64,000 bases of DNA from an uncultured delta proteobacterium (GCA_963823335.1 CAWGLD010000004.1:160001-224000), one strand, 5' to 3'; positions 244 to 21,420 are shown, counted from the stretch's first letter. Program-made: numbers and translations. Notes: a model not told the origin generated them from the letters alone.

Positions 244-410
244 TGATGTATGGAATCTTAGTTCCTGACATTACAAGAAATATTGCCGATACCATCTAGT
301 TATCACCACGGTATCATGGCAGGGCTTATGAATGCAAGATTTGGCCTGTTGTGATTATAATCGCACACCGGTGAAATTTGAGGGGCCTAATAACCTTGTT
401 TTTGTTAGAG
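244..410 (+). repeat. Repeat family R1, copy A (~165 bp structured intergenic repeat)
   Basis: TATTGCCGATACCAT...GCAAGATTTGG...TGTGATTATAATCGCACACCGG...TTTGTTAGAG aligns by eye with copies at 9.2, 10.7, 15.5, 16.4/17.0, 20.3 and 21.3 kb. Confidence 0.85.
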
Positions 411-570
411 TTACCAAAGTTATTTGCAGATCAAAATTATTACAGATATGTCAACTTAAAGGAATCTTGGACATGACTTAAGAGTTGCTCTTGTTAAGAT
501 TTATTAAATTTGGAGTTAATAATAACTCACATTAAATGCCCCTTAAACAGAACAGAGCTATCCCTTATAA

Positions 571-1167
571 TTATTTCGCTATGTTGTCTCTTAAAAGTGT
601 CAGCCCTTCTTCACGGGCTTTGAGAATAGTTTTCAGGCTAACACCTTTCATCTCCTGGCGGAGGATGACAAAATCTTTCAATACTTGGCGATATATTAGA
701 TATTCATCTTTTCCCGAGATATTCGCTGCGACCTTTGAGTTGAAAAGAAAATTATCGATCGGCCCGTTTTTTCCGTTTCGATTTCCCTCGGAAAGATCGA
801 CACAATGATCCTGATAAACCAGAAAACAGTGCACCATCGGAAGGTAGGGAAGATTATATCTGTCTAGAATTTTTCCTGTCCCACTAACAATCTCTTCTGT
901 CATCGCGTAGATACCGATGTTCTTTACAATCTTTAAATTTAGTTCGGCCGCCAGGGTTCCGATGACCGCATGTTTGGTCGTGCAGCTCCCCATTTTCTCC
1001 TTAAAAAGAATCATTACGTCGTCTCGATTTGAGTTGTAGCCGTAAGGCAGTTCATACACATAGCGGCAAGCACTCTGGAAATCTTTTATCCCCAGATCCA
1101 GAAAAGTCTGTGCAATTAAGCCCGCTTTTTCTATCGGTTTGTTTGGGAAAACAGTATGTTTTTTCAT
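571..1167 (-). CDS. Hypothetical protein, possibly transglutaminase-like cysteine protease fold
   Basis: 198-aa ORF with GSCTTKH motif and a later HCFL...VD. Confidence 0.7.
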   Translation of the reverse strand: MKKHTVFPNKPIEKAGLIAQTFLDLGIKDFQSACRYVYELPYGYNSNRDDVMILFKEKMGSCTTKHAVIGTLAAELNLKIVKNIGIYAMTEEIVSGTGKILDRYNLPYLPMVHCFLVYQDHCVDLSEGNRNGKNGPIDNFLFNSKVAANISGKDEYLIYRQVLKDFVILRQEMKGVSLKTILKAREEGLTLLRDNIAK

Positions 1168-1257
1168 TTGCTAATATTGATACTCAAATAACCTTACCGA
1201 CGTTTCTTTCAAAAATGATACTGATTCTTTAATAATTTTTTAGCTGCATCCATAAAG

Positions 1258-3033
1258 TTAAGCAGGGTGATGGATAGTAAAGGTACTTCCTTTACCGAGC
1301 TCGCTCTGCACGGAAACCCTGCCGCCGTGTGCCTTGACGATATGTTTCACGATGGCCAACCCCAGGCCAGTGCCTCCCAGGGTCCGGCTTCTGGATTTGT
1401 CGACCCGGTAAAATCTTTCAAACAGTCTGGGTTGGTGTTTTAGAGAAATTCCAGAGCCATGGTCAATTACGTGGATGCGCATCTCATGATCACGAATTTC
1501 CACAGTAATATGCACGGTTTCATTTTCAGGGCTGTAGGTTACGGCATTGTCCAGCAGGTTGATCAATGCCTGTTCGAAGATAGAAGAATCGACTTGAATT
1601 GGGGTGTCTGGTTCACAGGCAATATCAAACGATATATTTTTTTTCTCAGCTTTCAACTGGACCACATGGATGGCGTTTTCAATGAGGCGCTTCAAACCCC
1701 TTTTTTCGATCTTGATTTGTTCTATATTGTCAAATTGCTCAAGTCTGGACAGCATTAACAGGTCTTCAATAATGGCGTTCAACCGATCCACCTGGCGCAT
1801 GATGATCACAAAGAATTTTTCAGTATCAGCCGAAGGTTGGGGCATGTTTTCATGCAGGGTTTCAACAAATCCTTTGATGGCGGTCAGCGGTGTTTTTAAC
1901 TCGTGGGACACATTGGCCACAAAATCTTTACGAACGTTTTCAAGATGACGGATCTTGGTGACGTCGTTGAGAACCAGAAGGGATCCGATGCGAAGGTTTT
2001 TCGCGTCCTTCAGCGGTGCGCTGCGGATATTGATAAGTGTTGTATGGTTGCCTTCCAGAATCTCAAAGTCTTTATCTTCCATCTCTTTGCCGGCGAGCGA
2101 ATCGGATACATATTCAAGAAATTCCGGTATTCGCAGGGTTTCCTGGATGGTCCGTCCCTTGGCTATTGCGGTATCGATTTTCAGCATATCCAGCGCCGCC
2201 TGGTTGATGCTCAGCAAACGCTCGTCGCTGTCCACGGCGATAACCCCTTCTTTCATGCTCGACAAAACCGCTTCATATTCGTTGCGCTGGCTGATAACAG
2301 TTTTGATCCGTTCTTGCAGTTGGCCCGCCATCTGATTCATGGCTTCTGCCAAGCTGGCAAGTTCCGATGAAACAGGAGTGGGAAGTCTGAGGTCCAACTC
2401 GCCTTTTGCGAAACGTTCGGCGCCTTTCTTCATTTGTTCGATAGGCTGGGTAATTCTTCTGGCGATGAACAGCGTCACGATTGAAGACAAAAATGCAATA
2501 ATCAGGCCGCCGAAAATAATTTTCAGCTGAATCGATTTCAGCTTTTTGTCGATGGCGGTAACCGGGATGGATGTCCGCAGGATGCCGATGAGCCTTCCGG
2601 CAGGGTCTTTCAGTTGAATGGCTTCATACATCAGGGTTTGACCGAGCGTGCCGCTGTATCTTAGCGAAGTTCCCATACCGTCATGTATCGCCTGCATGAC
2701 CTCTGGCCGATCGATGTGGCTGTCCATTTGGCTTGGATTTTTTTCGGAATCGCCGACAACCCGTCCATCGGGAAGGATAACGGTAATGCGTGTTGAGGCC
2801 TCGATTCCGAATTCTTTGCATAAATAATCGACGCTCTCAAACTCCCTGCTTATGAGGATTTTTGTAATTTGCGGCTTCAACAGCAGGCTTTGGTTTTGAA
2901 GATCGAACTGGGTTCTTTGGAGAAAAAAAGTTCGGGAGGTACTGGATGTGTACCACGCAAGTGAAAAAATGGCAACCAGGGTGGTAATGAGAAACCAGGG
3001 ATAAAAATGCCAGATGAGTCTGCGATGGATCAT
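1258..3033 (-). CDS. phoR: Phosphate regulon sensor histidine kinase (HAMP-PAS-HisKA-HATPase)
   Basis: [14 protein letters not shown]-box, NLLDNA N-box, [11 protein letters not shown]2; overlaps phoB. Confidence 0.9.
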
Positions 3034-3725
3034 GATGTTTTCTCTTTGAATCGATAGCCGACACCACGCACCGTTTCAATATAATGGGCAAAGGTGTCAA
3101 ATTTTTTTCTAAGACCGACGATTTGAACATCTACGCTCCGGTCGGTGACCGGATAATCGTCACCCTTTACGGCATCCACGATTTGCGATCTCGTAAAGAC
3201 CCAGCCTGGCCGTCTGGCCAGAAAATAGAGAATTTGAAACTCGGAAAGAGTCAAGTCAATGGATTTGCTGCCTGCCAGAACGTGATGCCGGCGGGGATCG
3301 ATGGTCAACTGGTGAATGTGAATGATCTTTTCAGGGTTTTCTTCTTCGGCCGTTTGTCTGCGAAGCACGGACTTCACTCTTGCCATGAGGATCCGGAGGC
3401 TGAAGGGCTTGGTGACATAATCATCCGCACCCAGTTCCAGCCCGATGACAATATCCGCTTCCTCGCCCTTGGCTGTCAGCATGATGATGGGTATATGCGA
3501 GGTCTTCTGATGCTGTTTCAACCGCCTTGCCACTTCCAGGCCATCGATGCCGGGGAGCATGAGATCGAGGATCATGAGCTCTATGTTTTCGTTTTTTGCT
3601 TTTTCCAGCGCTTTCTCGCCGGAAATCGCGCAGATGACCTGGTACCCTTCCCTTGCGAGATTGTACCGGACCAGTTCTAAAATATCTTCTTCATCATCAA
3701 CGACCAGAATGGTTTCTTTTGCCAT
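3030..3725 (-). CDS. phoB: OmpR/PhoB-family response regulator
   Basis: Receiver domain (VVDDE, LDLMLP, GADDYVTKPF) plus wHTH ETVRGVGY; in pst operon. Confidence 0.9.
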   Translation of the reverse strand: MAKETILVVDDEEDILELVRYNLAREGYQVICAISGEKALEKAKNENIELMILDLMLPGIDGLEVARRLKQHQKTSHIPIIMLTAKGEEADIVIGLELGADDYVTKPFSLRILMARVKSVLRRQTAEEENPEKIIHIHQLTIDPRRHHVLAGSKSIDLTLSEFQILYFLARRPGWVFTRSQIVDAVKGDDYPVTDRSVDVQIVGLRKKFDTFAHYIETVRGVGYRFKEKTS

Positions 3726-3753
3726 GGGCTGCCTTTTTAAAAATCAGATTTTG

Positions 3754-4413
3754 TTACTCCAGGACACCGTGTCGGACAATATCACCTTCGATCAGGTATA
3801 TGACCTCTTCGGCAATGTTGGTGGAATGATCCGCCAGTCGCTCCACATGGCGGGAAATCAGCAGCAGGTTGATGTAATAACCCAAATGATTCGGATCGCT
3901 TTTCATGGCCTGCTTGATCCTGTCGTAAGCCAGATCTTTTAATTCATCCACTTCATCATCCATTGTGCAGACCTTTAACGCAAGGTCAATATCCAGGTTC
4001 ACCAGGGAATCAAGACTCATTTTGAGCATCACCTGAGCTTTTTCCGACATGACCGAATAATCAAATACAACATTTTCAATATCCTGTTTAGCGATGGTGA
4101 GGACCCGCTGGGCAATATTTACGGCCTGGTCGCCGATCCTTTCCAGATCATTGTTTATTTTAATTACGGCGATCAGAAATCGAAGATCCACCGCTACCGG
4201 TTGATGCAGTGCGAGCACTTTGAGACATTCTTCCTCCACTTCGACTTCCATTTCATCAATTTCAAAGTCGTTCTTGATAATTTTTTCCGCCAGGGCCGCA
4301 TTTTTTTCATCGACGGCCGTTCGGGCCATCTGAACCCGTTCTTCCACCAGCGCGCCAAGAGCGAGTATCCTTTGTTTTATCTTTTCCAGTTCTCTATGAA
4401 AATGTTTTGTCAT
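3754..4413 (-). CDS. phoU: Phosphate signalling protein PhoU
   Basis: QPVAVDLR, DLERIGDQAVNIA and ERLADHSTNIAE repeats. Confidence 0.95.
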   Translation of the reverse strand: MTKHFHRELEKIKQRILALGALVEERVQMARTAVDEKNAALAEKIIKNDFEIDEMEVEVEEECLKVLALHQPVAVDLRFLIAVIKINNDLERIGDQAVNIAQRVLTIAKQDIENVVFDYSVMSEKAQVMLKMSLDSLVNLDIDLALKVCTMDDEVDELKDLAYDRIKQAMKSDPNHLGYYINLLLISRHVERLADHSTNIAEEVIYLIEGDIVRHGVLE

Positions 4414-4459
4414 GGCTTTTCCTCAAAAACCGTTTATTGTTATGTCCGATTCGAACGGG

Positions 4460-5245
4460 TTAGCCGAACCGTCCCGTAATATAATCTTCCGTCTGTTTCA
4501 GCCTGGGTCTTGTGAATAGTGTGTCTGTTTTATCCACCTCAATAAGTTTCCCGATGTAAAAAAATGCGGTACTATCGGAGACCCTGGCTGCCTGCTGCAT
4601 GTTGTGGGTTACAATAATAATGGTATAACTTTTTTTGAGTTCATGAATTAGTTCTTCAATCTTCTGGGTGGCTATCGGGTCCAAGGCGGAGCAGGGTTCG
4701 TCCATCAGCACGACTTCAGGTTGTATGGCCAGCGCGCGGGCCATGCACAAGCGTTGCTGCTGGCCGCCGGAGAGCCCAAGAGCGGATTCATGAAGCCTGT
4801 CTTTGACCTCATCCCACAGGGCAGCTTGTTTCAAGCTTTCTTCCACACGTGCTTCAACAAGGGCTTTGTTTTTAACACCGTTTACCAAAAGACCGTAGGC
4901 CACATTTTCAAATGTAGTTTTCGGAAACGGATTCGGTTTTTGGAACACCATGCCCACCCGCTTTCTCAATAATACGACATCCAGACCGGCCGCGTAGATA
5001 TCTTCACTTTCCAGTCGGATATTGCCCTCCACACGGGTTGCGGGAATCAAATCATTCATCCGGTTAAGACACCGCAAAAATGTGCTCTTCCCACAGCCGG
5101 AAGGTCCGATGAGCGCAGTTACCTCGCATTCATTAAAGTATAGATCAACGTCATAGAGCGCCTGTGAAGCACCATAATAGAAATTCAGGTTTTCCACGGA
5201 CATTTTAGGTTTTTTCTTTTTCATGTTGTTGGATTCCATTTTCAT
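4460..5245 (-). CDS. pstB: Phosphate ABC transporter ATPase
   Basis: [40 protein letters not shown]. Confidence 0.97.
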
Positions 5246-6210
5246 TACTGTCTCAATCGTTTCCGAAGATATGAGCGATAGATGATTGCAATCAGGTTCA
5301 TTCCCAGAACCAGGGCGATCAAAACAAGGGCGGTGCCGTATTGAAGGTGGCGTGTTTTTTCAATTTCAGTGCCGGCCGTTGCCAGTACATAAATATGATA
5401 GGGCAGGGCCATGACTTCGTCAAAGATGGATTTCGGCAGATGGGGCGTAAAGAAAACCGCGCCGGTAAACATAATGGGCGCTGTTTCACCGGCGGCGCGG
5501 CTAAGACCCAGTATCGTACCGGTGAGAATGCCCGGCATGGCAGAAGGCAACACCACCCGCCAGATGGTCTGCCATTTGGTGGCGCCGAGGCCCAAAGAGG
5601 CTTCTCTGTATGTATCCGGAACCGACTTCAATGCTTCTTCGGTTGAGCCGATGATGACCGGCAAAGACATGACGCCCAATGTCAATCCGCCGGCGAGGAT
5701 GCTGACGCCCATGTTTAAAATTACCACAAAAAAGGCCAGCCCGAACAGACCGAAGACCACAGAGGGAACACCTGCCAGGCTGCTGATGCCCAGCCGAATA
5801 ATGCGGATATATTTTCCCCGGCCGGCGTACTCGTTTAAAAAAATGGCCGATGCAACGCCGATAGGCAGCGCAACAATGATGGCGCAGATGCTGAGAGAAA
5901 GAGTGCCGACAATACAGGGGAGGATACCTCCCTGGGTCATGGAATCCGTGGGTGGCTGCGATAAAAAAGTCCAGTTGATGGCACGCCAGCCATTGATCAC
6001 CATGAAATAGAGAATAATGAACAATGCGATGCCATTGACAAAGGAGGCTGTCCGAAAAATCGAAAATGACAGAAATTGCGTGAGATTCTTGCGCCGGTGA
6101 TAGGTTGAATCCATGATCAGATCTTTGGCCAACCCCTTCTTTGGGTTTTCTTCTGATCGCTTGTTTTGAGAATTTTTAATATGCAAGGCTTGACTGGTAT
6201 CCATCTTCAT
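5245..6210 (-). CDS. pstA: Phosphate ABC transporter permease PstA (start uncertain: 6210 or 6114)
   Basis: [34 protein letters not shown]. Confidence 0.92.
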
Positions 6211-6250
6211 TTTGGTGCACGCGCATCCTTCATGCGTATAAACGTCGAAT

Positions 6251-7147
6251 TTAAAGCGAGGCTTCACCCACCCGCCGATATTTTGTGGCAATATGGTCGG
6301 CAATAATATTGAAAATCAGTGTAAAGATAAACAATACAATGCCGGTAGCAAAGAGTGCATAATAATGATCACTGCCCACCGGTGCTTCCGCCATCTCAGA
6401 TGCAATGCTCGCAGGCATGGGTCTTACCGGATCGAAAATGGATTCCGGTATCATTGCGGCACCGCCTGCCACCATGAGCACCACCATGGTTTCACCGATG
6501 GCTCTTGAAAGGCCGAGAATGATGGCTGTACTGATGCCTGAAATGGATGCGGGCAATATGACCCGGATGATGGTCTGCAGGTGCGATGCGCCCAGGGCAA
6601 CGGAGGCCTCTTTTAAGGCAGCGGGCACGCTGTGGATGGCGTCTTCGGATATGCTGCAAATGGTCGGAATCGACATGAACGCCAGCATGATGGACGCGTT
6701 GAACAGGTTCAATCCTGTGGGAATGTCGAATACACGTTGGAGAAATGGCGCCACCAAGACCATGCCGAAAAACCCGATGACCACCGAAGGCAGCGCTGCC
6801 AAGAGTTCCACCATTGGTTTGACGATTTCGCTTACCCGGTCCGAAGCGATTTCAGCAATATAAATCGCCGTCATGACCCCCAGGGGGATGGAAATCAAGC
6901 CGGAAATAAAAGTGACCAACAGGGATGCGACAATCAGAGAGAGAATACCGAAATCAGCGGGATCGGATGTCGGGTACCAGTATTTTCCGAAAACGAACTC
7001 CTTGACAGAAACGGTCTTGAATATGGGCAGCCCTTCCTTGAAGAGAAACAGGGTGATCAACAAGAGAACGGTCAAAGACGTCAGAGCCACCATGAAAAAC
7101 AGGGTGTGCATAGATCGTTCGGTAATAATCCGCTTGTTTTGTTTCAT
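6251..7147 (-). CDS. pstC: Phosphate ABC transporter permease PstC
   Basis: ELLAALPSVVIGFFG, RAIGETMVVLMV. Confidence 0.95.
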   Translation of the reverse strand: MKQNKRIITERSMHTLFFMVALTSLTVLLLITLFLFKEGLPIFKTVSVKEFVFGKYWYPTSDPADFGILSLIVASLLVTFISGLISIPLGVMTAIYIAEIASDRVSEIVKPMVELLAALPSVVIGFFGMVLVAPFLQRVFDIPTGLNLFNASIMLAFMSIPTICSISEDAIHSVPAALKEASVALGASHLQTIIRVILPASISGISTAIILGLSRAIGETMVVLMVAGGAAMIPESIFDPVRPMPASIASEMAEAPVGSDHYYALFATGIVLFIFTLIFNIIADHIATKYRRVGEASL

Positions 7148-7250
7148 AAGGAAAGGACCGGGTGCTTTCTTAATTTCGATCTAAATCCGCTCTGCGGGCG
7201 GATGTTCAGTTGATGGGGCCCAGACCCTGATGGGCCGGGGTCCCGTTATG

Positions 7251-8069
7251 TTAATACAGCGGTACATAGCCACTGTCTGCTACGTGTTTCTGGCCTTTTT
7301 CAGGATTCAGCATGTAATTGATGAAGTTCAAGGTGTCGCCTTCGGGCCAGCCGTTGGTGAACATGAAAAGGGGCCTGCTGATGGGAAACGTACCGTTGAG
7401 AGTGGTCTCGTTGGTGCCCTGGACGCCATTGACCGTCAGCACTTTGACGCTGCTGTTCACATAGCCGATGCCGATGTAGCCGATGGCATACTTGTTGTTG
7501 GATACGGCCTGCACGATGGCGCCGTTGGAAGCCATGATCTGGGCCCTGGGAGTGACGCGCTCGCCTTTCAAGACTTTCCCTTCCCATGTTTCATACGTTC
7601 CGGAAGATGTATCGCGTGAGCATACAACAATTTTGAGATCCGGTCCACCCAGTTCTTTAAAATTGGTGATGTCGCCCTTGTAGATGGCTTTGAGCTGATC
7701 CAGGGTAATGTCGATCAGGGAATTGCTGGGATGAACCACCGGAATAATCGAGTCGTAGGCGACGGCGTAAGGTACCGGATAGACACCTTTCCCAACGGCC
7801 ATGGTGACTTCTTTATCCTTGATAAAACGGGATGCATTGGCGATGTCCGTGGAGCCGTCGATAATGGCCTTGATGCCGTTGCTGGAACCACCCCCGGACA
7901 GCGAAATGCTCACACCCGGGTTGGCTTTCATGTAGGCTTCCACTGCCTTTTGGGCAATGGGCAGCACGGTGGTCGATCCCTTTATGACCAAATTGCCTGC
8001 AAAAGCACCGTTTGCAAAGATCAATCCCAACGCGCCGATCATAATCATGACTGTTAACTGTTTCTTCAT
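7251..8069 (-). CDS. pstS: Phosphate ABC transporter substrate-binding protein
   Basis: IKGSTTVLP, GGGSSNG, RDTSSGT, FPISRPLF; GGAGGA RBS before ATG at 8069; signal peptide. Confidence 0.93.
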   Translation of the reverse strand: MKKQLTVMIMIGALGLIFANGAFAGNLVIKGSTTVLPIAQKAVEAYMKANPGVSISLSGGGSSNGIKAIIDGSTDIANASRFIKDKEVTMAVGKGVYPVPYAVAYDSIIPVVHPSNSLIDITLDQLKAIYKGDITNFKELGGPDLKIVVCSRDTSSGTYETWEGKVLKGERVTPRAQIMASNGAIVQAVSNNKYAIGYIGIGYVNSSVKVLTVNGVQGTNETTLNGTFPISRPLFMFTNGWPEGDTLNFINYMLNPEKGQKHVADSGYVPLY

Positions 8070-8174
8070 TTCTTTCCTCCATTTTGTAATGAATTTATAT
8101 TGAAAAATTGACCTAAATAAGAACAACAAGCAAACATAGTCGTTTAATAACAGTTGGAGGAAAATAGCATGGGA

Positions 8175-8218
8175 TTGTTAGAATTTTGTTAGGACTCGGT
8201 TAATTTTTGATTAATATT
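8175..8218 (-). promoter_or_regulatory. Putative Pho-box array (four direct repeats at 11-bp period) upstream of pstS
   Basis: + strand TTGTTA (8175), TTGTTA (8186), CGGTTA (8197), TGATTA (8208), i.e. TAACA-like half-sites every 11 nt on the - strand. Confidence 0.7.
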
Positions 8219-8420
8219 ATCGTTTCACATACTTTTGATTAAGGAAATAAACATTGAATTCCCTTAAACCTACAAAAATGACCAAGTCACCACCGAACCA
8301 GCACCATCAGTGACACAAGATTTACTTTATGAAGTCATGGAATGCGAATTTTTTCAGACAAAGAACTTTAAAGAGGGGGCAGATTGTGAGGATATCACAA
8401 CATCCATCAAAGTGGTGAGC

Positions 8421-8456
8421 GGAGAATATTCCCAGTTAGGCCGATCTGCAGATATC
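8421..8456 (+). repeat. Repeat family R2, copy 1 (36 bp)
   Basis: GGAGAATATTCCCAGTTAGGCCGATCTGCAGATATC; 34/36 identical to 19219-19254. Confidence 0.8.
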
Positions 8457-8556
8457 TATTAGGTGTTTTATCCATAGTTCCGCCGCAGACGTATAACCAA
8501 GTTAAAACCTTTGTTGGTATCTTATCAAGTGAAGAGTTGATTTCTATGTGTCCCCA

Positions 8557-9126
8557 TTATTCCACGTAACCGCTACCAATAGCAGAAAAGGGGAGATCCA
8601 GGTCCAGTTCCGGTACCTGTTTGGCGATCCAAGCGATAAAGGTATTGCTGTTGGGCCCTGGAAAGGCTTTGTAGGTTGTTTTCCATGGGTAAGCATAGGC
8701 TGCCTTTTCTATGGCAGAAATCAGTTCGTCGACCCCCTTTCCCCTATGCTCTTTTAGAACCCGGGGCTTCTCGCCGTACCAGTAGCGGTCGGGTACGTCC
8801 TGGGTAATCCTAATAACCGGCTGGCCACGATTGCCACGCCAACCAACCACATCGTACACAGTATAAGACGTTTCTCCGGTACGCTTGGCGGCGATCCAGG
8901 TATGAATTGCAAACCAGCCGCGCCAACCCCAAGCATCGGCACCATAGACATAAAGGATTGCCTCATTTGTGGTGGAAGGGTCAGGTGCAATCCCGGCAGA
9001 TTCGCGACTGGCGTTACGCCAATCTTTATCAGCACAACCATTCGACAAAATCAACATAATCAGAACAAATGCTGATATTAGTTTTACGTTTTCCACAATT
9101 TGATACTTCACGACATCATCGCACAA
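8557..9126 (-). CDS. DUF3750-family protein (putative lipoprotein)
   Basis: WRNASRESAGIAPDP, GWRGWFAIHTWIA, YKAFPGPNSNTF. Confidence 0.8.
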   Translation of the reverse strand: MCDDVVKYQIVENVKLISAFVLIMLILSNGCADKDWRNASRESAGIAPDPSTTNEAILYVYGADAWGWRGWFAIHTWIAAKRTGETSYTVYDVVGWRGNRGQPVIRITQDVPDRYWYGEKPRVLKEHRGKGVDELISAIEKAAYAYPWKTTYKAFPGPNSNTFIAWIAKQVPELDLDLPFSAIGSGYVE

Positions 9127-9238
9127 ATTAAAAGGACATTTCAGAAAGCAATATATTGGGAACCATCAATACCACAACTTATTCGTCCAAACAATTTTCA
9201 GATATGATATCCATTTGCCCGGTATAACCTAACTTGAG

Positions 9239-9405
9239 GTATATGGAGATAAGTCCAGTTATCAAGTTCAACGGCAATATTACCGATACCATATGGTAAT
9301 GCACACGGTAGCATGGCAGATACTATGACTGCAAGATTTGGTCGATTGTAATAATTTTCGCACACCGGTAATATTTTAGAGGGTTGATATCTACCTTTTT
9401 GTTGG
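9239..9405 (+). repeat. Repeat family R1, copy B
   Basis: TATTACCGATACCAT...GCAAGATTTGGTCGATTGT...TTTCGCACACCGGTAA...GATATCTACC...GTTGG. Confidence 0.9.
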
Positions 9406-10876: not shown

Positions 10877-10877
10877 C

Positions 10878-14000: not shown

Positions 14001-15338
14001 GGATTCTTCCAGAAAGGAGCCGGTTCCGGCAGAACAGGCTTCGTTCATGGCATAATCAGAGGGAACACCATTGTTAATATAGGTATATTTGGCATCCTGG
14101 CCTCCGATTTCAAATATCGTATCGACCTGGGGATCAAAGTATACCGCAGCCGTTGCGTGAGCGATAATTTCATTGATGACACAGTCGGTTAACGCATGGA
14201 GCCCGGCTATTTGTCGACCTGAACCGCATACACCAAGCCCGATGATCGATAGGTCGGAAGGTTCCACCCGGTGTTGAACCTGTTCCAGAATCCGGGCATA
14301 ACATTTACGGCTGGCCCCTACCGGGTCTCCATTTGTTCGCAGGTATACAGATGCCAGCAGGGCCTGATCCGACTTTCTTAACAATACTGCCTTGGTTGTT
14401 GTGGAGCCTACGTCGAGTCCGAGGATACAGGTATCGCCGGGTACGATCATACCCATGGCCATTGATTTAAACGTTACCCGATCTTTGAAAGGAATCAGCG
14501 GTGGTAGTGACTGGAATGAAGCCATTCCTGTCTTAAAGATGTCGTTAGCGTCCGTTATCGGGATCGTTTCGTTTTTGAGTGCCCACAAGGCGGCTCCCAT
14601 GGCTTCAAAATAGGGACCGGTTTCAGGTACGATGAGACCGGGAATTTTCTGCCGTAGGTACGCCACCATCATATGGTTTTTAACCGAACCTCCGGTGATC
14701 ATAATGTCGCGTTTTTCAACTTTTTTAAGAAGCTCTATAATTTTGCCCGCCATCATTTTACAGAGACCGGCTGTGACCTTTGATTTGGGGGTGCCCCTGT
14801 TGGTGGCATGTGTGCAATCGGATTTACAGAAAACAGAACAACGACCCGAGACGTGGTGAGGGGTCGCTTCAACCGCCCATTGAGCTGCCTCATCCAGGCT
14901 GACGTTCATTCTTTTGATTTGCTGCAGAAAGAATTCACCTGTTCCGGAGGCGCATTTGTTGCCAGTCAGTACATTAGATATTCGGCCTGAACTGTCCAAG
15001 ACGTAGACCATAAAGGTTTCACCACCGGCCGATACAATCGCAGGGCACGAAATACCCTTTGGTTTGATGTAGCCATAGGCGTGCTCTACGGACTCAGGCT
15101 CGGAAATGGATGAAAGGTGGATAAACTTACGGAATTTTCTGCCTGTAGCGGCAATCCTATCGAAAGAAGTCAGATCCAGCGCGCCAAGTGCCGATCTAAG
15201 TGTTTTTTTTGGATTGCCGTCATGGGGGTGGCGTGAGAAATTGACGATATTTGGCCGGTCAATACCAGCCGTGGTATTCTGTTCCAACTGGACCATGGAA
15301 ACGGTTGATGCACCAAGACATATGCCGAGAGTTTTCAT
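11007..15338 (-). CDS. CoA-substrate-specific enzyme activase (two BadF/BcrAD-type ATPase domains plus DUF2229-like C-terminal part)
   Basis: NKCASGTGEFF, GLDVGSTTTK, EIGGQDAK, MNEACSAGTGSFL, NFSCGPD, PFGCMP. Confidence 0.9.
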   Translation of the reverse strand: MKTLGICLGASTVSMVQLEQNTTAGIDRPNIVNFSRHPHDGNPKKTLRSALGALDLTSFDRIAATGRKFRKFIHLSSISEPESVEHAYGYIKPKGISCPAIVSAGGETFMVYVLDSSGRISNVLTGNKCASGTGEFFLQQIKRMNVSLDEAAQWAVEATPHHVSGRCSVFCKSDCTHATNRGTPKSKVTAGLCKMMAGKIIELLKKVEKRDIMITGGSVKNHMMVAYLRQKIPGLIVPETGPYFEAMGAALWALKNETIPITDANDIFKTGMASFQSLPPLIPFKDRVTFKSMAMGMIVPGDTCILGLDVGSTTTKAVLLRKSDQALLASVYLRTNGDPVGASRKCYARILEQVQHRVEPSDLSIIGLGVCGSGRQIAGLHALTDCVINEIIAHATAAVYFDPQVDTIFEIGGQDAKYTYINNGVPSDYAMNEACSAGTGSFLEESAMESLGLGMEDIASVALKGEKPPNFNDQCAAFISSDIKNAIHEDIRHEDIVAGLVYAICMNYANRVKGNRPIGNKIFLQGGVCYNRAVPMAMASITGKPIIVPPEPGLMGAFGVALVVKKRIEAGMTAVKAFSLKTLAHRRVAYGKPFICKGGKEKCDRQCPIELIEIEGRRYPFGGACNRYDNLRHKVKHPVDTLDLVRIRQRLVFEKYGVNGPQRYRQAEKGSIGINRSFMVNTYYPLYSTFFSLLGYRPVLPEGISYSGIDQRNAPFCYPAELSHGFFHSLITADPPPEHLFLPHFKSIPAQNGDRSSQVCPFVQGETFFLQTTFREQLRGLQKRGTRILQPLLDLKNGLEDARTPMVTTALKMGFSGKAAKRAFDEAYTQQMRCMTEMKMLGQQALAELESDSEKIGVVIFSRSYNGLVEEANMGIPRKLASRGILVIPFDFIPFDNEKPKRHMYWGMGQMILKAARFVKQHPQLFGVFITNFSCGPDSFLVGYFRSIMGKKPSLTLELDSHTADAGIDTRIEAFTDIVSAFRQLVKRQKIDMAEHPFKMTGTSLVNGRVTVVTAAGEKVILTDPRVTVLLPSMGKLASEAITAVFNGLGINAIAHPPADESILKLGRGHTSCKECLPLILTTGSLLNYIHTRQKPGEILVYFMATGTGPCRFGQYYIFMEDLIKRLGIPDVAMLSLSSENAYLGLHKTFDRAAWWAVVVSDMMEDIRSMLLANAVHVSEALHLFQTIWEGLLDSLKTVDFNQLLIRLSAGAGDLAGIPLKRPVACVSKVLLTGEIFVRKDTLSRQNIPEQLAEMGMATICSPVAEWIHYTDFLIQKGIVGGGMSMMEKLRFKLRKKIMAHDEHSIRSILAGSGLLASTPLVMKDIIRHATPYISPDLTGEAILTIGSSLLEIASHVCGVIAIGPFGCMPNRLSEAILSKAMQREDKLQLTPSDTHLQKTLETIEALPFLALESDGSPFPQLIHAKLEAFCLQAERLHERMTK

Positions 15339-15506
15339 GGCCCCTCATTCTTGTGTTATTTTGGGGGTAGATGGAGTTTTCGATAATTATTTTCTAAAAA
15401 TCTATCATTCCATAAAGCTGCAAAGGTTGTGATGTTTTGAAATTCTGGGATTATAAGTACATAAAGATACTGACACCATACCTCAGTTTTTGTCGTTTTT
15501 TTACGG

Positions 15507-15676
15507 CATATGGAGAAAATCTTTATAATTTGGGAATTTGGAAATATTACCGATACCATCTGGTCATGCCCACGGTACCATGGGAGCCCCTATCAATGCA
15601 AGATTTGGTCGATTGTGATTATTTTCGCACATCGGTAAATTTTCAGGGGTATGATATCTACCGTTTTGTTGGAGAT
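15507..15676 (+). repeat. Repeat family R1, copy D
   Basis: TATTACCGATACCATCTGGTCATGCCCACGGTACCATGGG...CGCACATCGGTAAA...GATATCTACCGTTTTGTTGGAGAT; ends 17 bp from the stop codon at 15694. Confidence 0.9.
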
Positions 15677-15693
15677 AGTGCAAGTTTCATTTA

Positions 15694-16380
15694 CTAACAA
15701 TTAAAAGGGTAAAGGTAACGTTCACTAGGGCTCCATAAAAACGTCACTTCTGCAGGTTGAAATTCGACTCCATTAACACACATTGGAGGAAGCATAATGC
15801 TAAATTCTTGAGGATTACCAAACATCCCATCTGTCTCTATGTCTATATACATATGTGTGCCATATTCCCCTTTTCCTTGAAGTGTCCACCCAAATGGCGC
15901 CAATTTCAAATTATTCTCATCACGAGAAGACCTAACATATACAAGCCAGTTAGGGCATATATTTCGGTATCGAGTTTCTCTAATTTCCACTTTTTTTATT
16001 CTAAACTCGTATTCGTTTTCTGCCTGCGGATTTTTTAATACAATGATATTTGATTTAAAATCCAAAACACTTCCTGTCGGCACATATATTCCTATCTCTC
16101 CAAAAACACCCTTGCCCGTTGCACCGCTTATCAGTCCTTCGATTCCCTTTTCCCCATTCCATGCGGCCAAGAATAACTGAACTCCTTTAGGCCCCTCAAT
16201 TACAAGGACTTCCTCAGGGCCAGTACCACCACAGCAATCTCTCCTCGCAACATGGTGTTCAACTCCGTTGTAAATAGGGTGAAAGTATGGACCCATCTCA
16301 ATATAAGCACACGCTGACAACCATACGGGTGCCAGTGGTAAAAGAAGTAAAATCGAGATGAATTTTAACATAACCACCAC
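15694..16380 (-). CDS. Hypothetical lipoprotein (AT-rich)
   Basis: 228-aa ORF with hydrophobic N-terminus and LSAC lipobox. Confidence 0.65.
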   Translation of the reverse strand: MVVMLKFISILLLLPLAPVWLSACAYIEMGPYFHPIYNGVEHHVARRDCCGGTGPEEVLVIEGPKGVQLFLAAWNGEKGIEGLISGATGKGVFGEIGIYVPTGSVLDFKSNIIVLKNPQAENEYEFRIKKVEIRETRYRNICPNWLVYVRSSRDENNLKLAPFGWTLQGKGEYGTHMYIDIETDGMFGNPQEFSIMLPPMCVNGVEFQPAEVTFLWSPSERYLYPFNC

Positions 16381-16413: not shown

Positions 16414-16472
16414 TGATACATGGAGAGATGTCCAGTTATCATACTCAACAAAATTATTACCGATACCATCTG
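16414..16472 (+). repeat. Repeat family R1, copy E, left half
   Basis: TGATACATGGAGAGATGTCCAGTTATC...TATTACCGATACCATCTG, then similarity stops. Confidence 0.8.
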
Positions 16473-16649
16473 AATATATGCAGTCTATCGTAATTTTGAA
16501 ACACGTGTCAAATGGTAGCGGCTAATAACGCTGCTTTGTTCCAATAAACAAAATGCTTTTAGCAGGCGCCAGTAGACAGCTTGTCTGTGATACTTTGTTG
16601 GTCTCCAATCGCATATTAAGAAAATGGATTGACTGTCTCGGTAACCTAT

Positions 16650-16975
16650 CAGGCATTTTTGGATGAAGCGAGTAAAACCGTTTCATTTCAAAGAACGATC
16701 AATATCTTGATTATGGACAATGCCTCATGGCATCGAAAAATATCGACCAAATGGCATGGATGACAACCAAAATATTTGCCACCATATTCGCCAGATTTAA
16801 ATCCTATCGAAAGAATCTGGCTTACAATGAAAGCACGCTGGTTCAATAATCATGTTTGTAAAAACGAAGAACAACTATTAGAGCGCTTGGGTCAGGCCAT
16901 ATTAGATGTCATATATACTCCCTTGCGGACTCAAAAAACCGCCGCTATCGGAACGTTATTATGACAAACGCTCTA
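16650..16975 (+). mobile_element. IS630-family transposase remnant (3' part, in-frame stop) with right terminal repeat
   Basis: ILIMDNASWH...G*QPKYLPPYSPDLNPIERIW DDE motifs; end TCGGAACGTTATTATGACAAACGCTCTA. Confidence 0.85.
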
Positions 16976-16979
16976 ATTT

Positions 16980-17040
16980 ATGATTATCTTCGCACATCGG
17001 CAGTTTTTCAGGCGCCTGATATCTACCGTTTTGTTTGAGA
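16980..17040 (+). repeat. Repeat family R1, copy E, right half
   Basis: TGATTATCTTCGCACATCGG...TCAGGCGCCTGATATCTACCGTTTTGTT, starting just after the IS630 end. Confidence 0.8.
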
Positions 17041-17188
17041 AATTACCGGTTTTGAGAGGAATCTTTTTCGAGTGACCACGATGATGTGTCGTAGGTTCAA
17101 GGCAACACGCATGAATGATACTACCATAATGGCCATGTGATAGAAATTGTAAATGGGATCATTCGGGTCATATGGCCCGGCTGATCCT

Positions 17189-18919
17189 TCACTCGGCCTC
17201 TTGAGCCTCCTCTCTTAATAATAAATCTCTGAGCTCTCGCTTTAATACCTTCCCGACACCACTGACTGGTATCGCATCTATAAAGCGGACCTCCCTGATT
17301 TTTTTATATGCTGCAATCTGGCTGTTGGTAAATTCCATCAATTGACCTGCAGTGATTTCACCACCCGCCATCAGTTGAACAAAGGCCACTGGCGATTCCC
17401 CCACTTCCAGGTCGGGCTTCCCTACTACTGCGCACTGCTCGACATCGGGATGCGAAAAGATGACTTCTTCCAGTTCTCTCGGATAGACATTGTAACCCTT
17501 GTAAATGATCATGTCTTTTTCACGATCGGTAATGTAAAAGTACCCATCATCATCCATATAACCGATGTCACCGGAATGAAGCCAACCCTCTTTCAGAACC
17601 CGACCGGTCTCTTCAGGTTTGTTCCAGTATCCCTGCATCACCTGGGGGCCTTTTATACAGATTTCACCCCTTTCACCAGGCGGCAGGTCTTGTCCCGTTC
17701 CAAGATCCACGACTTTGCACTCTGTGTCGAAGACAGGAATCCCGACCGATCCCTGCCGGATGGCGGTTCTTTCCGGCGGGTTGGCTGTAGCTCCCATGGT
17801 GCATTCAGTCATACCGTAACCCTCGCACACTACGCCGGAAAATGCAGAAAGCATTTGTTCGAGTACCGACATGGCCAGCGGTGCGGCACCCGAGGAGACC
17901 AGTTTAACACCGGAAAGATCATATTTTTTAAAATCCGGCAAGTTGATCAGAGGGATAAAAAGCTGAGGGGCACCACCCAGGGCCGTGGCGCTGTATTTTT
18001 GAATGCCGTCCAGAAATTCCTGGGGTTCAAAGCGGGGATACACCACCATTGTGGACCCGCCAAAGACGGGATTGTTCAGATAGCCGACGGTGCCCATGGC
18101 ATGAAACCATGGGACGACCACCAGGGCAGTCTCCCGGTCCTTTGCGGTGATGCGATCCGCTATTGGATCGACTCCCGGGGGAAACACAGTGATGGGTACG
18201 CCGTCCTGAATTTCTATCTGTGCCCCGGAAAACCAGTTGGCATACTGACATGTATTTGCGACCACATTATAATGCGTCAGCATGACTCCCTTTGAGAGCC
18301 CAGTGGTACCGCCTGTATAAGCCAGGTGGGCCAGATCATTGAATACGTCTATCTCAACACCGGGTACGTCGGGTTCATTGTTTTGGAGAAGGTCGGCCAT
18401 GTCCATGGTATCCGGAACGGCTATTTTTGAAAGCGGCTTCAGGGGTTGAATCACGGGATTGTAACAATCTGCAATGCTGGTAGTTATCACATGTTTGACG
18501 TTGGTTTCAGTAATAATCTCCGCTATGCTGGGATAGATCAAGTCTAAGGAGACTAGTACTCGGGCATCAGCATCGTTAAGTTGGTAAACAATCTCTTTAG
18601 GTGCCAAAAGCGGGCTCAAAGGTGTGAATACGGCCCCCACTTTGAGTATGCCATAATAGGCGATTGCGAATTGGGGGCAATTTGGCAGATGAATGGCCAC
18701 CTTGTCGCTCTTTTTCAATCCCAAGGAAACCAGTGCAGCTGCAAAGCGGTCTGCCAAGTTTCTCAACTCGCTGAAGGTCAGCTCCATGCCGCCAAAGATA
18801 ATGGCCAGGCGATTCGGAACCCGATCCGATGTGTGATCCAGAAATTTGAATACAGGCTGCTCGGGATAATTGAGGCTTTTAGGCCATTGATCGGGCCATG
18901 CATTGAAGTTTTTTGCCAT
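17189..18919 (-). CDS. Long-chain fatty acid-CoA ligase (AMP-binding)
   Basis: YTGGTTGLSKG, EGYGMTE, WLHSGDIG, DREKDMI, GKVLKR. Confidence 0.92.
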   Translation of the reverse strand: MAKNFNAWPDQWPKSLNYPEQPVFKFLDHTSDRVPNRLAIIFGGMELTFSELRNLADRFAAALVSLGLKKSDKVAIHLPNCPQFAIAYYGILKVGAVFTPLSPLLAPKEIVYQLNDADARVLVSLDLIYPSIAEIITETNVKHVITTSIADCYNPVIQPLKPLSKIAVPDTMDMADLLQNNEPDVPGVEIDVFNDLAHLAYTGGTTGLSKGVMLTHYNVVANTCQYANWFSGAQIEIQDGVPITVFPPGVDPIADRITAKDRETALVVVPWFHAMGTVGYLNNPVFGGSTMVVYPRFEPQEFLDGIQKYSATALGGAPQLFIPLINLPDFKKYDLSGVKLVSSGAAPLAMSVLEQMLSAFSGVVCEGYGMTECTMGATANPPERTAIRQGSVGIPVFDTECKVVDLGTGQDLPPGERGEICIKGPQVMQGYWNKPEETGRVLKEGWLHSGDIGYMDDDGYFYITDREKDMIIYKGYNVYPRELEEVIFSHPDVEQCAVVGKPDLEVGESPVAFVQLMAGGEITAGQLMEFTNSQIAAYKKIREVRFIDAIPVSGVGKVLKRELRDLLLREEAQEAE

Positions 18920-18964
18920 AATAACCTCCTTTCGTTCTTTGAATTGCTTGCCTGTTGTTCTATG

Positions 18965-19122
18965 CCGGTATGCTGCTCAATCTGTTCAGAAATCACCGCC
19001 CTATATGCTTTAAGCGTCTTAACCGTAAAGGCTTCATCGTCAGACATCAGGAGAGAGTAGCTCTTGACATCAGCAGACAGGATGGCCCTGAGTTTCCTTG
19101 TAACTTTATCTTCAGTGGGCAT
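18965..19122 (-). pseudogene. 5' stub of a class III adenylate/guanylate cyclase gene
   Basis: MPTEDKVTRKLRAILSADVKSYSLLMSDDEAFTVKTLKAYR resembles the RKLxAILSADVxGYSRLM cyclase N-terminus; truncated after ~50 aa. Confidence 0.75.
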
Positions 19123-19218
19123 GAAGATCACCTTCGGTATAGCAGGTTGTGGTTCAAAGAATTCAGGTGTTTCGGACAAGGCATTTCGCGAGAAATCCTA
19201 CCATGGCTTCACCGTTGA

Positions 19219-19254
19219 GGAGAATATTCCCAGTTAGGCCAACCTGCAGATATC
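19219..19254 (+). repeat. Repeat family R2, copy 2
   Basis: GGAGAATATTCCCAGTTAGGCCAACCTGCAGATATC. Confidence 0.8.
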
Positions 19255-19311
19255 ATGTACAATGAGGTTTTTTTCGGTATGGTTATGGAAACAGTCAAAG
19301 AAAGATTCGCC

Positions 19312-19659
19312 TCAAGCGATTCTGACATTTTCTGCCCCTTTAAACAACTGAATAATCTCCCTTATATAGGCGCATTCGCATTTAGCCGTACAAGGTCTCA
19401 ATTCCTCCTTGTTCAAGCAGTACTCGGGGCACTCATCAGTTCCAGTCTTTGCCTCCTTAAATATTGGACCATCATAAAGATCGACAAATCGATTGGCGGA
19501 TAAAATAATGGTATTCTTACAACTGTGGTTGAAATATAAGAATCCAGCTTCCAGTTTTTTAAAATTCGCTTGATAGCCGATGATTTCAATGTCCCGGTCG
19601 ATAATAAAATCTTGACGAGAATACCATATATATTTACAAACGTTACAATTCTTAAACAT
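19312..19659 (-). CDS. Cys-rich hypothetical protein (possible metal-binding)
   Basis: CxxC N-terminus, HxC, C-x3-C...C-x3-CxC C-terminus; GAAGG RBS. Confidence 0.7.
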   Translation of the reverse strand: MFKNCNVCKYIWYSRQDFIIDRDIEIIGYQANFKKLEAGFLYFNHSCKNTIILSANRFVDLYDGPIFKEAKTGTDECPEYCLNKEELRPCTAKCECAYIREIIQLFKGAENVRIA

Positions 19660-19778
19660 AAAAGTGCCTTCATTTTCTATTGTATCAGCTGAAAATAAAA
19701 TATGAGTCGCAATACAGATTTATGGAATCTACAGTTTGGCCTATATGCAGATAACATCAAACCATCGTCCATATGTAT

Positions 19779-20105
19779 TTACATTTTAATTTTTCGTGGA
19801 GAAGTTTCTATTTTTTCAGGTAACGAATCTGGATCATATAAAGATCGCATGATTCGCCATTGAAGAATTCTCTTTTTTCTTAGTTTGATAGGATCTTTCC
19901 ATACATTAAATTCTGAATTGTAACCATTTCTAAGTCTCGCTCTTAAAACTTTTTCCCTCTCCCAAACAATTATTTCATAGTGTATTTTATCAATGACAAG
20001 ACCATCAGAGTCAAAATGAACCGTGTCTCCAAATACAAATGGAACTTGGTAAATTAACGCAATACAAATGATTGTTAAAATCATAAATATTAAATTTTTT
20101 TTCAA
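19779..20105 (-). CDS. Hypothetical exported/membrane protein (AT-rich)
   Basis: 108-aa ORF with N-terminal hydrophobic helix; GAGGG RBS before TTG. Confidence 0.55.
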   Translation of the reverse strand: MKKNLIFMILTIICIALIYQVPFVFGDTVHFDSDGLVIDKIHYEIIVWEREKVLRARLRNGYNSEFNVWKDPIKLRKKRILQWRIMRSLYDPDSLPEKIETSPRKIKM

Positions 20106-20280
20106 ATTAATCCCTCAGTATCTATCTTACAACCTTCACAATGTTAACATTGATCGATCCATGTATGATTTGGAAGCAAGGTTAAATAGATACATGATTT
20201 TGTAGGATGGGTCAAGAAAACGAAAGGTCAGACATTTCGTATGGCCTTTTTGGGAGTTAATCCTTATAGGCTCGAGCCTT

Positions 20281-20374
20281 TGATATATGGAGAGATGTTT
20301 AGTTATCAAGCCCAACCAAATTATTGCCGATACCATCTGGTCATGTCCACGGTACCACGGAGGGGGATATGAAT
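20281..20374 (+). repeat. Repeat family R1, copy F (3'-truncated)
   Basis: TGATATATGGAGAGATG...TATTGCCGATACCATCTGGTCATGTCCACGGTACCACGG...ATGAAT. Confidence 0.8.
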
Positions 20375-20410
20375 ATTGGGAGTATATTCCATTTGTATGT
20401 ATCTCGCAAA

Positions 20411-21037
20411 TTAAGAAGATCGTTGCATAGCAGCAGTAAATATACCAGCTCCAATTAACGCACTCCCACCAAACCGGTTGAACCATCTACGGACTTTATC
20501 CTTTTTCATCTGATCACCCAATTTACCTGCAAATATCGCATATAGGGATGCATTGATAGTCGCTAATATCAAAAATGTTCCGCCAAGCAACATTAATTGA
20601 GAAAAAGCTGGCTTGAAAGGATCGATAAACTGTGGGAGGAAGGCTACAAAAAAAGCAATGCCTTTGGGGTTAAGGGCCGTCACGATGAAAGAACTCCTGA
20701 GGAATGATCGTGCTGAATTATTTTTTGTATTATATTGGATAGAACTATTTTCAGGGTTTAACTTCCATAATTTTATCCCAAGATAGACCAGATAAATTGC
20801 GCCAATCCATTTGAAAATAGTGAACATGGCTGCCGAAGTAGACATTAGCGCCCCAAGCCCTAAAAGCGAAAGCATCATTGCCGTTAAATCTCCCAAGAGA
20901 ACCCCTATTACAAGCGGAACCACTGACCTACGCCCATGGGTTACAGCCTGGCTTATTACTAAAAGAATTGTGGGGCCTGGTATAATGAGTATTAAAGTTG
21001 CCGCAAAGACAAAAGGAATCCAAAGTTCCATATTCAT
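20411..21037 (-). CDS. LysE/RhtB-family amino acid exporter
   Basis: IPGPTILL, KWIGAIYLVYLG, LNPKGIAFF. Confidence 0.92.
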   Translation of the reverse strand: MNMELWIPFVFAATLILIIPGPTILLVISQAVTHGRRSVVPLVIGVLLGDLTAMMLSLLGLGALMSTSAAMFTIFKWIGAIYLVYLGIKLWKLNPENSSIQYNTKNNSARSFLRSSFIVTALNPKGIAFFVAFLPQFIDPFKPAFSQLMLLGGTFLILATINASLYAIFAGKLGDQMKKDKVRRWFNRFGGSALIGAGIFTAAMQRSS

Positions 21038-21115
21038 TATTCCCTCCTAAAGGAATCCAATATCTCAGATATCTTTGTCATATTACCCAGCTAAAAGGAA
21101 TTCTGCCTAATTTAG

Positions 21116-21195
21116 ATTCGCTCGCTAACCCCGCAGCATGCGAAGCACTGCCGGACGGCAGAACCTACGGGTAATGCACTCGCTGTTTCGGTTCA
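21116..21195 (+). repeat. REP-like palindromic family R3
   Basis: TTCGCTCGCTAACCCCGCAGCA[TGCGAAGCACTGCCGGACGGCAGAAC]CTACGGG...GGTTCA; related to copies at 36.2, 42.8 and 58.4 kb. Confidence 0.8.
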
Positions 21196-21249
21196 AGGCT
21201 TAAGGGTATTCAGTATAAAATCAATAAGACAAAACATCGTTAACATACC

Positions 21250-21420
21250 GATATATTTAGATAAACTTAGTTATCGAGTTTGAGGTAAACTTTACCGATG
21301 TCATCGGGTCATGCCCAGCGTACCACGGAGGTCCCCATCAACGCAAGATTTGGTCTGTTGCGATTATTTTCGCACATCGGAAAAATTCAGGGGTCTGATA
21401 TCTACCGTTTTGTTGGAGAT
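21250..21420 (+). repeat. Repeat family R1, copy G
   Basis: CTTTACCGATG...GCAAGATTTGGTC...TGCGATTATTTTCGCACATCGG...TCAGGGGTCTGATATCTACCGTTTTGTTGGAGAT. Confidence 0.9.

Follow-up and report, generated by a model that had tools for sequence, protein, structure and literature searches.

What kind of sequence recurs, always the same way round, between genes that are functionally unrelated? The question is raised by a 64-kb stretch of DNA from an uncultured Desulfobacterales metagenome-assembled genome (MAG; GCA_963823335.1, contig CAWGLD010000004.1), here G000:C4:160001-224000 and hereafter the window, in which a position equals the contig coordinate minus 160000 (G, C, and L numbers denote genomes, contigs, and loci). 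A preliminary description of this stretch had noted co-oriented copies of a structured repeat around unrelated genes and offered two readings, in one of which the repeat is where an undescribed, trans-acting gene-capture system attaches or has left its scar, and in the other a locally amplified structured RNA. The first fits what is reported below, the repeat corresponding to the two ends of a recombinase element whose sole intact gene in this genome lies on another contig, and homology to relatives breaking at the repeat cores. We put at roughly 45% the probability that these copies are the miniature docking sites of a second, integron-independent gene-capture system, in which a nested Xer-like recombinase is checked by a frame change at a run of A and genes and operons are traded as cassettes.

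An nhmmer profile built from five window copies was used on the window and on the whole G000 genome, while a repeat search of the window recovered the described copies as repeat families D1, D2, D3, and D6. Seven co-oriented copies were confirmed, all on the + strand between 243 and 21434, one split and one truncated, and, as had been claimed, none followed after about 21.5 kb, the profile giving zero matches in the window past 21434. A complete copy has a left end (LE) and a right end (RE). Sequence logos of 61 LE and 51 RE junctions showed GGAG(A) to be invariant at both ends, preceded by GAT..AT at LE and by a T-rich stretch at RE, where a 7-nt inverted repeat surrounds the core region; the distance from LE core to RE core was 159 nt in 31 of 39 copies. 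The window copies are as follows, all located by nhmmer except the 5' half of the split copy (16414-16472), which came from the repeat-family search.

243-427, + strand: miniature copy A, full length (model positions 14-204, E 2.5e-50); both cores degenerate, GGAA at 252 and TTAGA at 405
9227-9425, + strand: miniature copy B; LE core GGAG at 9245, RE core degenerate, GGTAT at 9404
10696-10895, + strand: miniature copy C; LE core degenerate, GGAA at 10717, RE core GGAG at 10873
15492-15689, + strand: miniature copy D; LE core at 15512, RE core at 15671, spacing 159 nt
16414-17055, + strand: copy E, split; LE 16414-16472 (core at 16422), 507-bp insert, RE 16979-17055 (core degenerate, TGAGA at 17036)
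20275-20374, + strand: copy F, truncated past about model position 110; LE core at 20289
21235-21434, + strand: miniature copy G, the last of the array; LE core degenerate, TTAGA at 21257, RE core at 21415

Fragment copies pointed to the origin of the repeat. In the nhmmer results they break recurrently at the same places, 5' parts ending at about model positions 81-93 and 3' parts starting at 126-127. A Pfam PF00589 search of G000 returned 11 tyrosine-recombinase matches, one of which (C1:164277-164684) is flanked on the same strand by the two repeat halves, the 5' one at 163780-163843 (model 18-81) and the 3' one at 164784-164860 (model 127-203). The full element (C1:163780-164860, about 1.1 kb), located outside the window, comprises an LE of about 70 nt, a recombinase of about 278 aa, and an RE of about 78 nt, and copy E, with its order of LE, insert, and RE, shares this layout. 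The arrangement of LE, recombinase, and RE was also present in G001 and in G015, a member of another family, and a truncated copy stands beside an RE on contig C9. Among the three full elements compared, similarity runs from just before the GGAGA of LE to the GTTGGAG of RE plus a weakly conserved 20 nt or so, and the flanks differ. In five further copies, termed type 2, LE and RE enclose about 115 nt that look like the leader of the recombinase gene together with the hairpin that follows its stop codon, while the common miniature form of about 185 nt has LE and RE joined by about 40 nt. The type-2 intermediates thus order the forms as a reduction series, from the 1.1-kb full element through type 2 to the 185-nt form. 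On these sequence comparisons, the miniature copies are very probably gene-less derivatives of the recombinase element with its LE and RE ends fused, that is, internal-deletion derivatives of the autonomous element found in G000, G001, and G015.

Within the 64-kb window, no match was obtained in searches that covered tyrosine recombinases and IS110 but not serine or HUH enzymes, bearing out for the first two types the earlier statement that the window holds no recombinase gene. IS110 was rejected as the parent enzyme. A single IS110 gene occurs in the array on contig C7, none is flanked by repeat halves, and the C7 gene was therefore treated as a passenger. Also rejected was a 375-aa tyrosine integrase 5 kb past the end of the C7 array (C7:240497-241624), a generic enzyme that falls below all equivalog cut-offs (62.5 bits against the integron integrase model TIGR02249, cut-off 265) and has no tblastn similarity to the nested recombinase.

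The nested protein scored 65.7 bits against PF00589 (cut-off 27.1), its closest solved structure was XerA 4a8e (E 3.3e-11), and the Arg, Lys, His-x-x-Arg, His, and Tyr catalytic positions all aligned with those of XerA 4a8e and XerD 1a0p. The enzyme looks intact. In a classification of the family (PMC8138268), simple tyrosine recombinases are those with core-binding and catalytic domains only, lacking an arm-binding domain. The present protein measures about 278 aa when read through its A run, and single-frame homologs of 278 aa carry PF13495 or PF14659 in addition to PF00589; by its predicted domains it is a simple Xer-like tyrosine recombinase. It missed the equivalog cut-offs for XerA (87.7 vs 220 bits), XerC (36.6 vs 335), and XerD (35.6 vs 330). 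The two highest PF00589 scores in G000 belong to C3:153957 and C5:425746, candidates that may be the host Xer pair.

The recombinase gene is interrupted by a frame change. From the first ATG, the open reading frame (ORF) encodes 225 aa within a frame open for 277 aa. Upstream, a second frame that opens with an ATG behind a Shine-Dalgarno-like GGAGG extends 20 residues to reach into nine consecutive A, then meets a stop; the main frame goes on from this run. Single-frame homologs (278 aa, 80% identical) match the upstream frame as far as the run and the main frame after it, and have eight A at the run. Across 12 loci, nine A with a frame change occurred in seven, eight A with a frame change in one, and a single frame in four. 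With eight of the 12 loci showing it, down to 57% protein identity, the frame change is conserved, and transcriptional slippage, +1 frameshifting, and an on-off switch between eight and nine A are all candidate explanations. Two loci 12 kb apart on G007:C16 (L052 and L063) hold a second recombinase subfamily (57 to 60% identical), likewise with nine A and a frame change, followed by a convergent small gene that resembles HU/IHF by eye only; these loci share 1.3 kb at 80% identity. A protein search returned 5827 proteins at E <= 1e-10; the best 120 of these share 71% identity or more and bear no other name than "integrase" or "XerD." Many of these 120 lie on contigs of 1.0 to 1.4 kb, as expected if the flanking repeats break assemblies.

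Across G000, the profile found 82 copies or fragments, 56 of which span more than 150 model positions. They fall into about ten arrays: 59 of 75 gaps between neighbors were shorter than 5 kb, whereas 2000 random placements averaged 7.3 such gaps and never exceeded 17, and 60 of 63 neighbor pairs less than 10 kb apart were co-oriented. The whole-assembly search that the preliminary description had called for therefore found copies genome-wide, yet in co-oriented clusters rather than in random orientation. Isolated copies also exist, such as C1:768060 and C1:1737054. On a crude, greedy map of ORFs of at least 90 aa (3706 ORFs), both flanking ORFs were antisense to the + orientation of the repeat at 60 of the 82 copies, orientations were mixed at 11 and 9, and both were co-sense at 2. 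For the 47 full copies with antisense neighbors, the median distance was 61 nt from the RE side to a stop codon and 162 nt from the LE side to the next start. Exactly one such ORF lay in 36 of 61 intervals between consecutive co-oriented copies. The arrays are, then, co-oriented and made mostly of single-ORF units with a site after each ORF, and by Pfam the contents of the window and C7 arrays are functionally unrelated. The C7 array includes two Lcl_C-domain genes with identical Pfam scores (C7:213900-214376 and 227309-227785; L014:4900-5376 and 18309-18785), which looks like a cassette duplicated within one array, as well as an IS110-family transposase (217467-218663), a DDE transposase (231300-232805), and a group II intron reverse transcriptase (233110-234432).

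By BLAST, the repeat occurred in 14 of 41 genomes, G000 included, with 12 of 14 others of its family and the one genome of a second family positive, and it was not found in 25 genomes taken one from each of 25 other families of the order. Contigs with the same pattern (12 stretches) were assigned to Deltaproteobacteria, Thermodesulfobacteriota, and Desulfobacterales MAGs, along with one 2.6-kb contig assigned to Zixiibacteriota. Conservation of the repeat is block-wise and extends across genera. One end of the recombinase locus of G037 is repeated at three other places, and G031 has end pieces at five other places, one of them an LE piece adjacent to an RE piece (C101:23729-23824); no large arrays were seen in either genome.

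Such arrays call to mind a divergent integron, or a cluster of attC sites lacking an integron integrase (CALIN), with the repeats as unusually long attC sites. Co-orientation, mostly single, unrelated, and promoter-poor genes, and a site after each ORF all agree with this, as does the RE end GTTGGAG, which fits six of the seven positions of GTTRRRY, the attC box consensus. The integrase and the symmetry do not. Over the whole of G000, none of 10 matches to TIGR02249 (IntI) reached the 265-bit cut-off, the best scoring 88.5 and the nested recombinase 28.3, and the repeat has no end-to-end dyad or long-range pairing on either strand, its ends being noncomplementary in the consensus. Sites of attC measure 57 to 141 nt, a range that the repeat of about 185 nt exceeds. 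We rejected the integron identity on the integrase scores below cut-off and the missing symmetry, and consider it scarcely credible.

The fixed orientation of the repeat relative to genes, its RE side a short distance past a stop codon, and its block-wise conservation could also mark a cis-acting transcript element or small RNA (a 3'-untranslated-region stabilizer, terminator, insulator, leader, or outward promoter) conserved as the regulator of its neighbor. The earlier description of the repeat as structured was not upheld. RNAalifold gave no consensus fold on either strand (0.0 and -1.2 kcal/mol), averaged pair probabilities picked out short local hairpins only, and fold z-scores averaged -1.13 on the + strand and -0.66 on the - strand, values below -2 being seen in 6 of 30 and 3 of 30 copies, respectively. 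Rfam returned 0 matches at the gathering threshold on both strands of the 64-kb window, and no terminator-like site was listed inside any copy. A sigma-54 or strong sigma-70 promoter in the repeat was rejected as well, a -24/-12 (sigma-54) match being absent by eye and a weak sigma-70-like match (9/12), recurring on the gene-sense strand of copies C, D, and E, being the only such site; this weak match counts in favor of a cis-acting element, although we base no claim on it. A cis-acting element would moreover leave the nested recombinase and the homology breakpoints at cores unexplained, and we regard it as improbable. Nor did the locally amplified structured RNA of the preliminary description find support, given the missing Rfam match and consensus fold, the weak z-scores, and a pairwise identity that was the same within arrays (0.712, 256 pairs) as between them (0.706, 1284 pairs), which also excluded local tandem amplification. 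A coding repeat was excluded by stops in all six frames, absent 3-nt periodicity, and indels of 1, 4, 7, and 11 nt.

We compared 15 loci of relatives with G000 and obtained 47 high-scoring segment pairs (HSPs) no shorter than 350 bp and with an identity of 85% or more. Twenty-four HSP ends lay within 300 nt of a core, and eight of them fell at 0 to +10, against about 0.4 expected if ends were evenly spread; five of these eight delimit gene units outside the miniature element. Contig C7 gives the plainest example, a DnaJ-domain unit of 965 bp that is 98% identical in G007 (100% over 242 bp in one comparison) and has its two limits at +2 relative to an RE core and at +4 relative to the LE core that follows. 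Within the window, similarity to G007 stops at 20294, right past the LE core of copy F, and at 10876, past the RE core of copy C, and a match in G010:C135 starts at 9404, the RE core of copy B. At four loci (L033, L034, L041, and L032), homology breaks at 8420/8421-8428, where a lone GGAGA joins two gene units, one with pst genes and one with a DUF3750 gene; in G005, the same pst left flank leads directly into a miniature element. Metagenome contigs from run X2 carried other partners joined at 10875, 10878, and 10952, those at 10875 and 10878 being left partners.

The RE core of copy C is itself interrupted. A GC-rich hairpin element of about 75 nt (10877-10950, + strand) is inserted exactly within it, separating GG from AG, and similar hairpin elements of about 75 nt occur at the equivalent site in L062 (contig C9, beside an RE) and in L037 (about 8930-9004, G007). 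A second small element thus seems to target the same core.

An adjacent 20 kb of the window, outside the array, is collinear with same-genus genomes at 68 to 86% identity, whereas array units are 90 to 100% identical to units of other species that lie on other contigs and in other neighborhoods; a Ni-SOD unit, for example, shares 95% identity with G004. For the arrays on C7 and C1, most parts had no close match in four congeners. Genome comparison showed that gene content between copies varies among congeners and that its order is not fixed, as the preliminary description had anticipated for a capture system. These alignments show that units are exchanged between species, with homology breaking at the cores.

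The units and the junction between two of them are listed below, as assigned by Pfam, by the ORF map and Pfam for the 228-aa ORF, and by the homology breaks of relatives for the lone core.

571-8420, - strand: pst-pho unit, comprising a 198-aa ORF, phoR, phoB, phoU, pstB, pstA, pstC, and pstS; 98% identical in G005, 95% in G001, and 90 to 92% in G010 (another genus), compared with 68 to 86% for the syntenic core
8421-8425, + strand: lone GGAGA core where two gene units abut, without an intervening miniature element
8421-9210, - strand: DUF3750 unit (PF12570; gene 8557-9126); 98% identical in G004, 95% in G007, and 90% in G001, with different flanks in each
9537-10565, - strand: aldo/keto reductase unit (PF00248); 93% identical in G007:C20 across 9493-10876, in a different context
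11007-15338, - strand: CoA-enzyme activase unit, 1443 aa (PF01869 and PF09989); 96.5% identical in G004:C25, a contig without the repeat
15694-16380, - strand: 228-aa ORF of no known family, GC 0.41
17189-20105, - strand: AMP-binding enzyme (17189-18919) and small ORFs (19312-19659 and 19779-20105); 90% identical in G007:C20 across 19768-20294
20411-21037, - strand: LysE-type exporter unit (PF01810), GC 0.41

Several details of the preliminary description held on this map. Four intervals contain exactly one minus-strand gene (the aldo/keto reductase, the CoA-enzyme activase, the 228-aa ORF, and LysE), gene GC in the window array ranges from 0.29 to 0.57 compared with 0.488 for the genome, and the 17-nt spacing between copy D, with its end then placed at 15676, and the stop codon of its cargo agrees with the stop of the 228-aa ORF at 15694-15696. 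The first gene beyond copy G, at 21608-23503, is on the + strand. The pst-phoU-phoBR operon itself (1258-8129), lying between two repeat copies, represents either a recent exchange of an ordinary housekeeping operon or exceptional conservation.

Other short repeats were noted in the window. A 60-nt segment ending in GGGTCAAGAAA (family D7) occurs at 123-182, 20160-20219, and 28204-28263, and two of these three sites lie left of copies A and F, respectively, at a distance of about 60 to 120 nt from the miniature element. At least four more short repeat families, direct and inverted and some with G/C-run hairpins, are unrelated to the main finding (21120-21195/36153-36228/42832-42907; 25016-25158/44317-44462/53667-53807; 44217-44329/55975-56088; 56118-56215/58047-58144), one of them being weakly matched, in inverted orientation, at 16933-16975 within the 507-bp insert of copy E. 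Family D10 (34608-34709) consists of two 51-nt tandem units that are 88% identical.

The strongest competitor is an ordinary, nonautonomous insertion element resembling a MITE (miniature inverted-repeat transposable element), whose copies insert themselves at a short GGAGA-containing target and accumulate in flexible islands, the gene mosaic arising from unrelated horizontal transfer and homologous recombination between repeats and not from cassette mobilization. Much of the evidence suits it: the copies are internal deletions of an autonomous element, all 82 are spread genome-wide and some are isolated, the direct GGAGA on both sides is readable as a target-site duplication as well as the overlap of site-specific recombination, several gene-unit boundaries have no core, and IS110, a DDE transposase, and a group II intron sit within arrays, as they do in flexible islands. 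Against it, MITE-type terminal inverted repeats were not found, LE and the reverse complement of RE sharing GATA only, and the parent is a tyrosine recombinase, not a DDE transposase. Gene units are themselves bounded by cores on both sides, and the lone core joins two of them with no repeat between, a junction that homologous recombination between repeats cannot produce. The co-orientation of close neighbors and the frequency of one-ORF intervals likewise speak against independent insertions of this kind, which we hold to be unlikely, though less so than the other alternatives.

For the gene-capture system, we lean toward a mechanism in which the recombinase acts in trans at the cores, moving both miniature copies and gene units and thereby building the arrays. 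A low level of enzyme would be produced through a slip at the run of nine A or through an on-off switch between eight and nine A. The enzyme would then act at GGAGA cores that form the shared overlap of attL-like (LE) and attR-like (RE) junctions, so that any two direct cores could recombine and a miniature element or gene unit could be excised as a circle, which would re-enter at another core. Repeated rounds would build and reshuffle co-oriented arrays and pass units between species. Recombination itself we infer from the arrangement of the sequences.

A number of observations weigh against this mechanism. No recombination product, whether a circle or an empty and filled pair in one population, was seen in the public runs, which are short contigs unfit for seeking circles or empty sites: 22 of the 24 listed runs (nine studies) hold parts of the window, all as short Logan contigs, and the listed joints, for example from 9268 to 15542, run from repeat to repeat and are uninformative on excision. 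Summed depth over 9339-11339 exceeded that of its neighbors in runs X1, X3, and X4, a measure that, being summed over contigs, cannot rank genes. Unit boundaries at 527, 1178, 9210, 9493, 10997, and 15422 have no recognizable core, and three of the eight HSP ends that hit cores come from HSPs that contain the repeat and so end there by construction. A palindromic empty target site formed by the left and right flanks was rejected, complementarity within the same copy being 4.38 compared with 4.44 for shuffled flanks, and the mechanism does not account for the arm architecture of the sites. G000 has one intact recombinase gene only, out of frame as DNA, and no close intact homolog was found in the repeat-rich genomes G004, G005, and G012-G014; elements of about 1.1 kb often assemble as separate short contigs, which binning would drop, and this tempers the latter point. 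An 8-kb pst-pho operon is an odd cassette, and the strictly antisense orientation of genes is unexplained.

If the gene-capture system proves real, it could be a major and overlooked route of gene flow in sulfate reducers, its recombinase family being very abundant in sediment metagenomes and its layout present in other Desulfobacterales families. It would account for the hypervariable islands of abundant sediment sulfate reducers and would be missed entirely by standard integron searches. In the conserved frame change at the A run there would be one more instance of a recombinase under the control of recoding or phase switching. To our knowledge, no well-described system other than integrons builds arrays of single-gene cassettes through site-specific recombination; cassette arrays would then have arisen more than once, here with a different member of the enzyme class, a double-stranded core of the lox or dif type, and miniature mobile sites. 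A full-text literature search and the consulted sections of the tyrosine-recombinase classification (PMC8138268) gave no description of such a system.

Compared with known systems, the locus is integron-like in its working, yet fails the tests specific to integrons, and it is MITE-like in its derivation, yet lacks inverted ends and has a tyrosine-recombinase parent. In common with integrons, especially sedentary chromosomal integrons and CALINs, it has a tyrosine recombinase and co-oriented arrays in which mostly single genes of unrelated function each have a conserved site behind them. What the arrays contain varies extremely from one close species to the next, and site copies are found far from any recombinase gene. 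Unlike in integrons, the enzyme is short, simple, and Xer-like with no IntI insertion, the site of about 185 nt lacks hairpin symmetry and R/L boxes, the recombinase gene is nested in the site and not placed next to attI, copies consisting of the site only derive from a mobile element by deletion, breakpoints fall at both ends of the site, and there are about ten arrays per genome. With MITEs and mobile insertion cassettes, the repeat shares its short, noncoding, multicopy nature, its internal deletions with intermediates, and its reliance in trans on a single full copy or a few of them, whereas terminal inverted repeats and a DDE parent are replaced by a tyrosine-recombinase parent and by co-oriented arrays alternating with gene units that end at the same cores.

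Simple recombinase systems offer further parallels. As in XerA/XerCD-dif, Cre-loxP, and FLP-FRT, the enzyme has core-binding and catalytic domains only, with XerA as its closest structure, and the RE core lies within a 7-nt inverted repeat; unlike in those systems, a dedicated recombinase is nested in the site, the conserved site is much longer, and LE and RE share GGAGA only. Modules of genes that recombinase sites enclose pass from one replicon to another in the Xer-dependent pdif system of Acinetobacter plasmids, and the present units are bounded in a similar manner, their sites being direct and not alternating. Many short intergenic copies and a single-copy enzyme gene flanked by the same sequence are also features of repetitive extragenic palindromes (REPs) and their hairpin-forming doublets (REPINs) with the REP-associated tyrosine transposases (RAYTs). 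RAYTs are HUH enzymes and REPs are short palindromes, and we know of no cassette-like arrays described for REP/REPIN-RAYT, whereas the copies studied here belong to a tyrosine recombinase and stand in arrays between genes.

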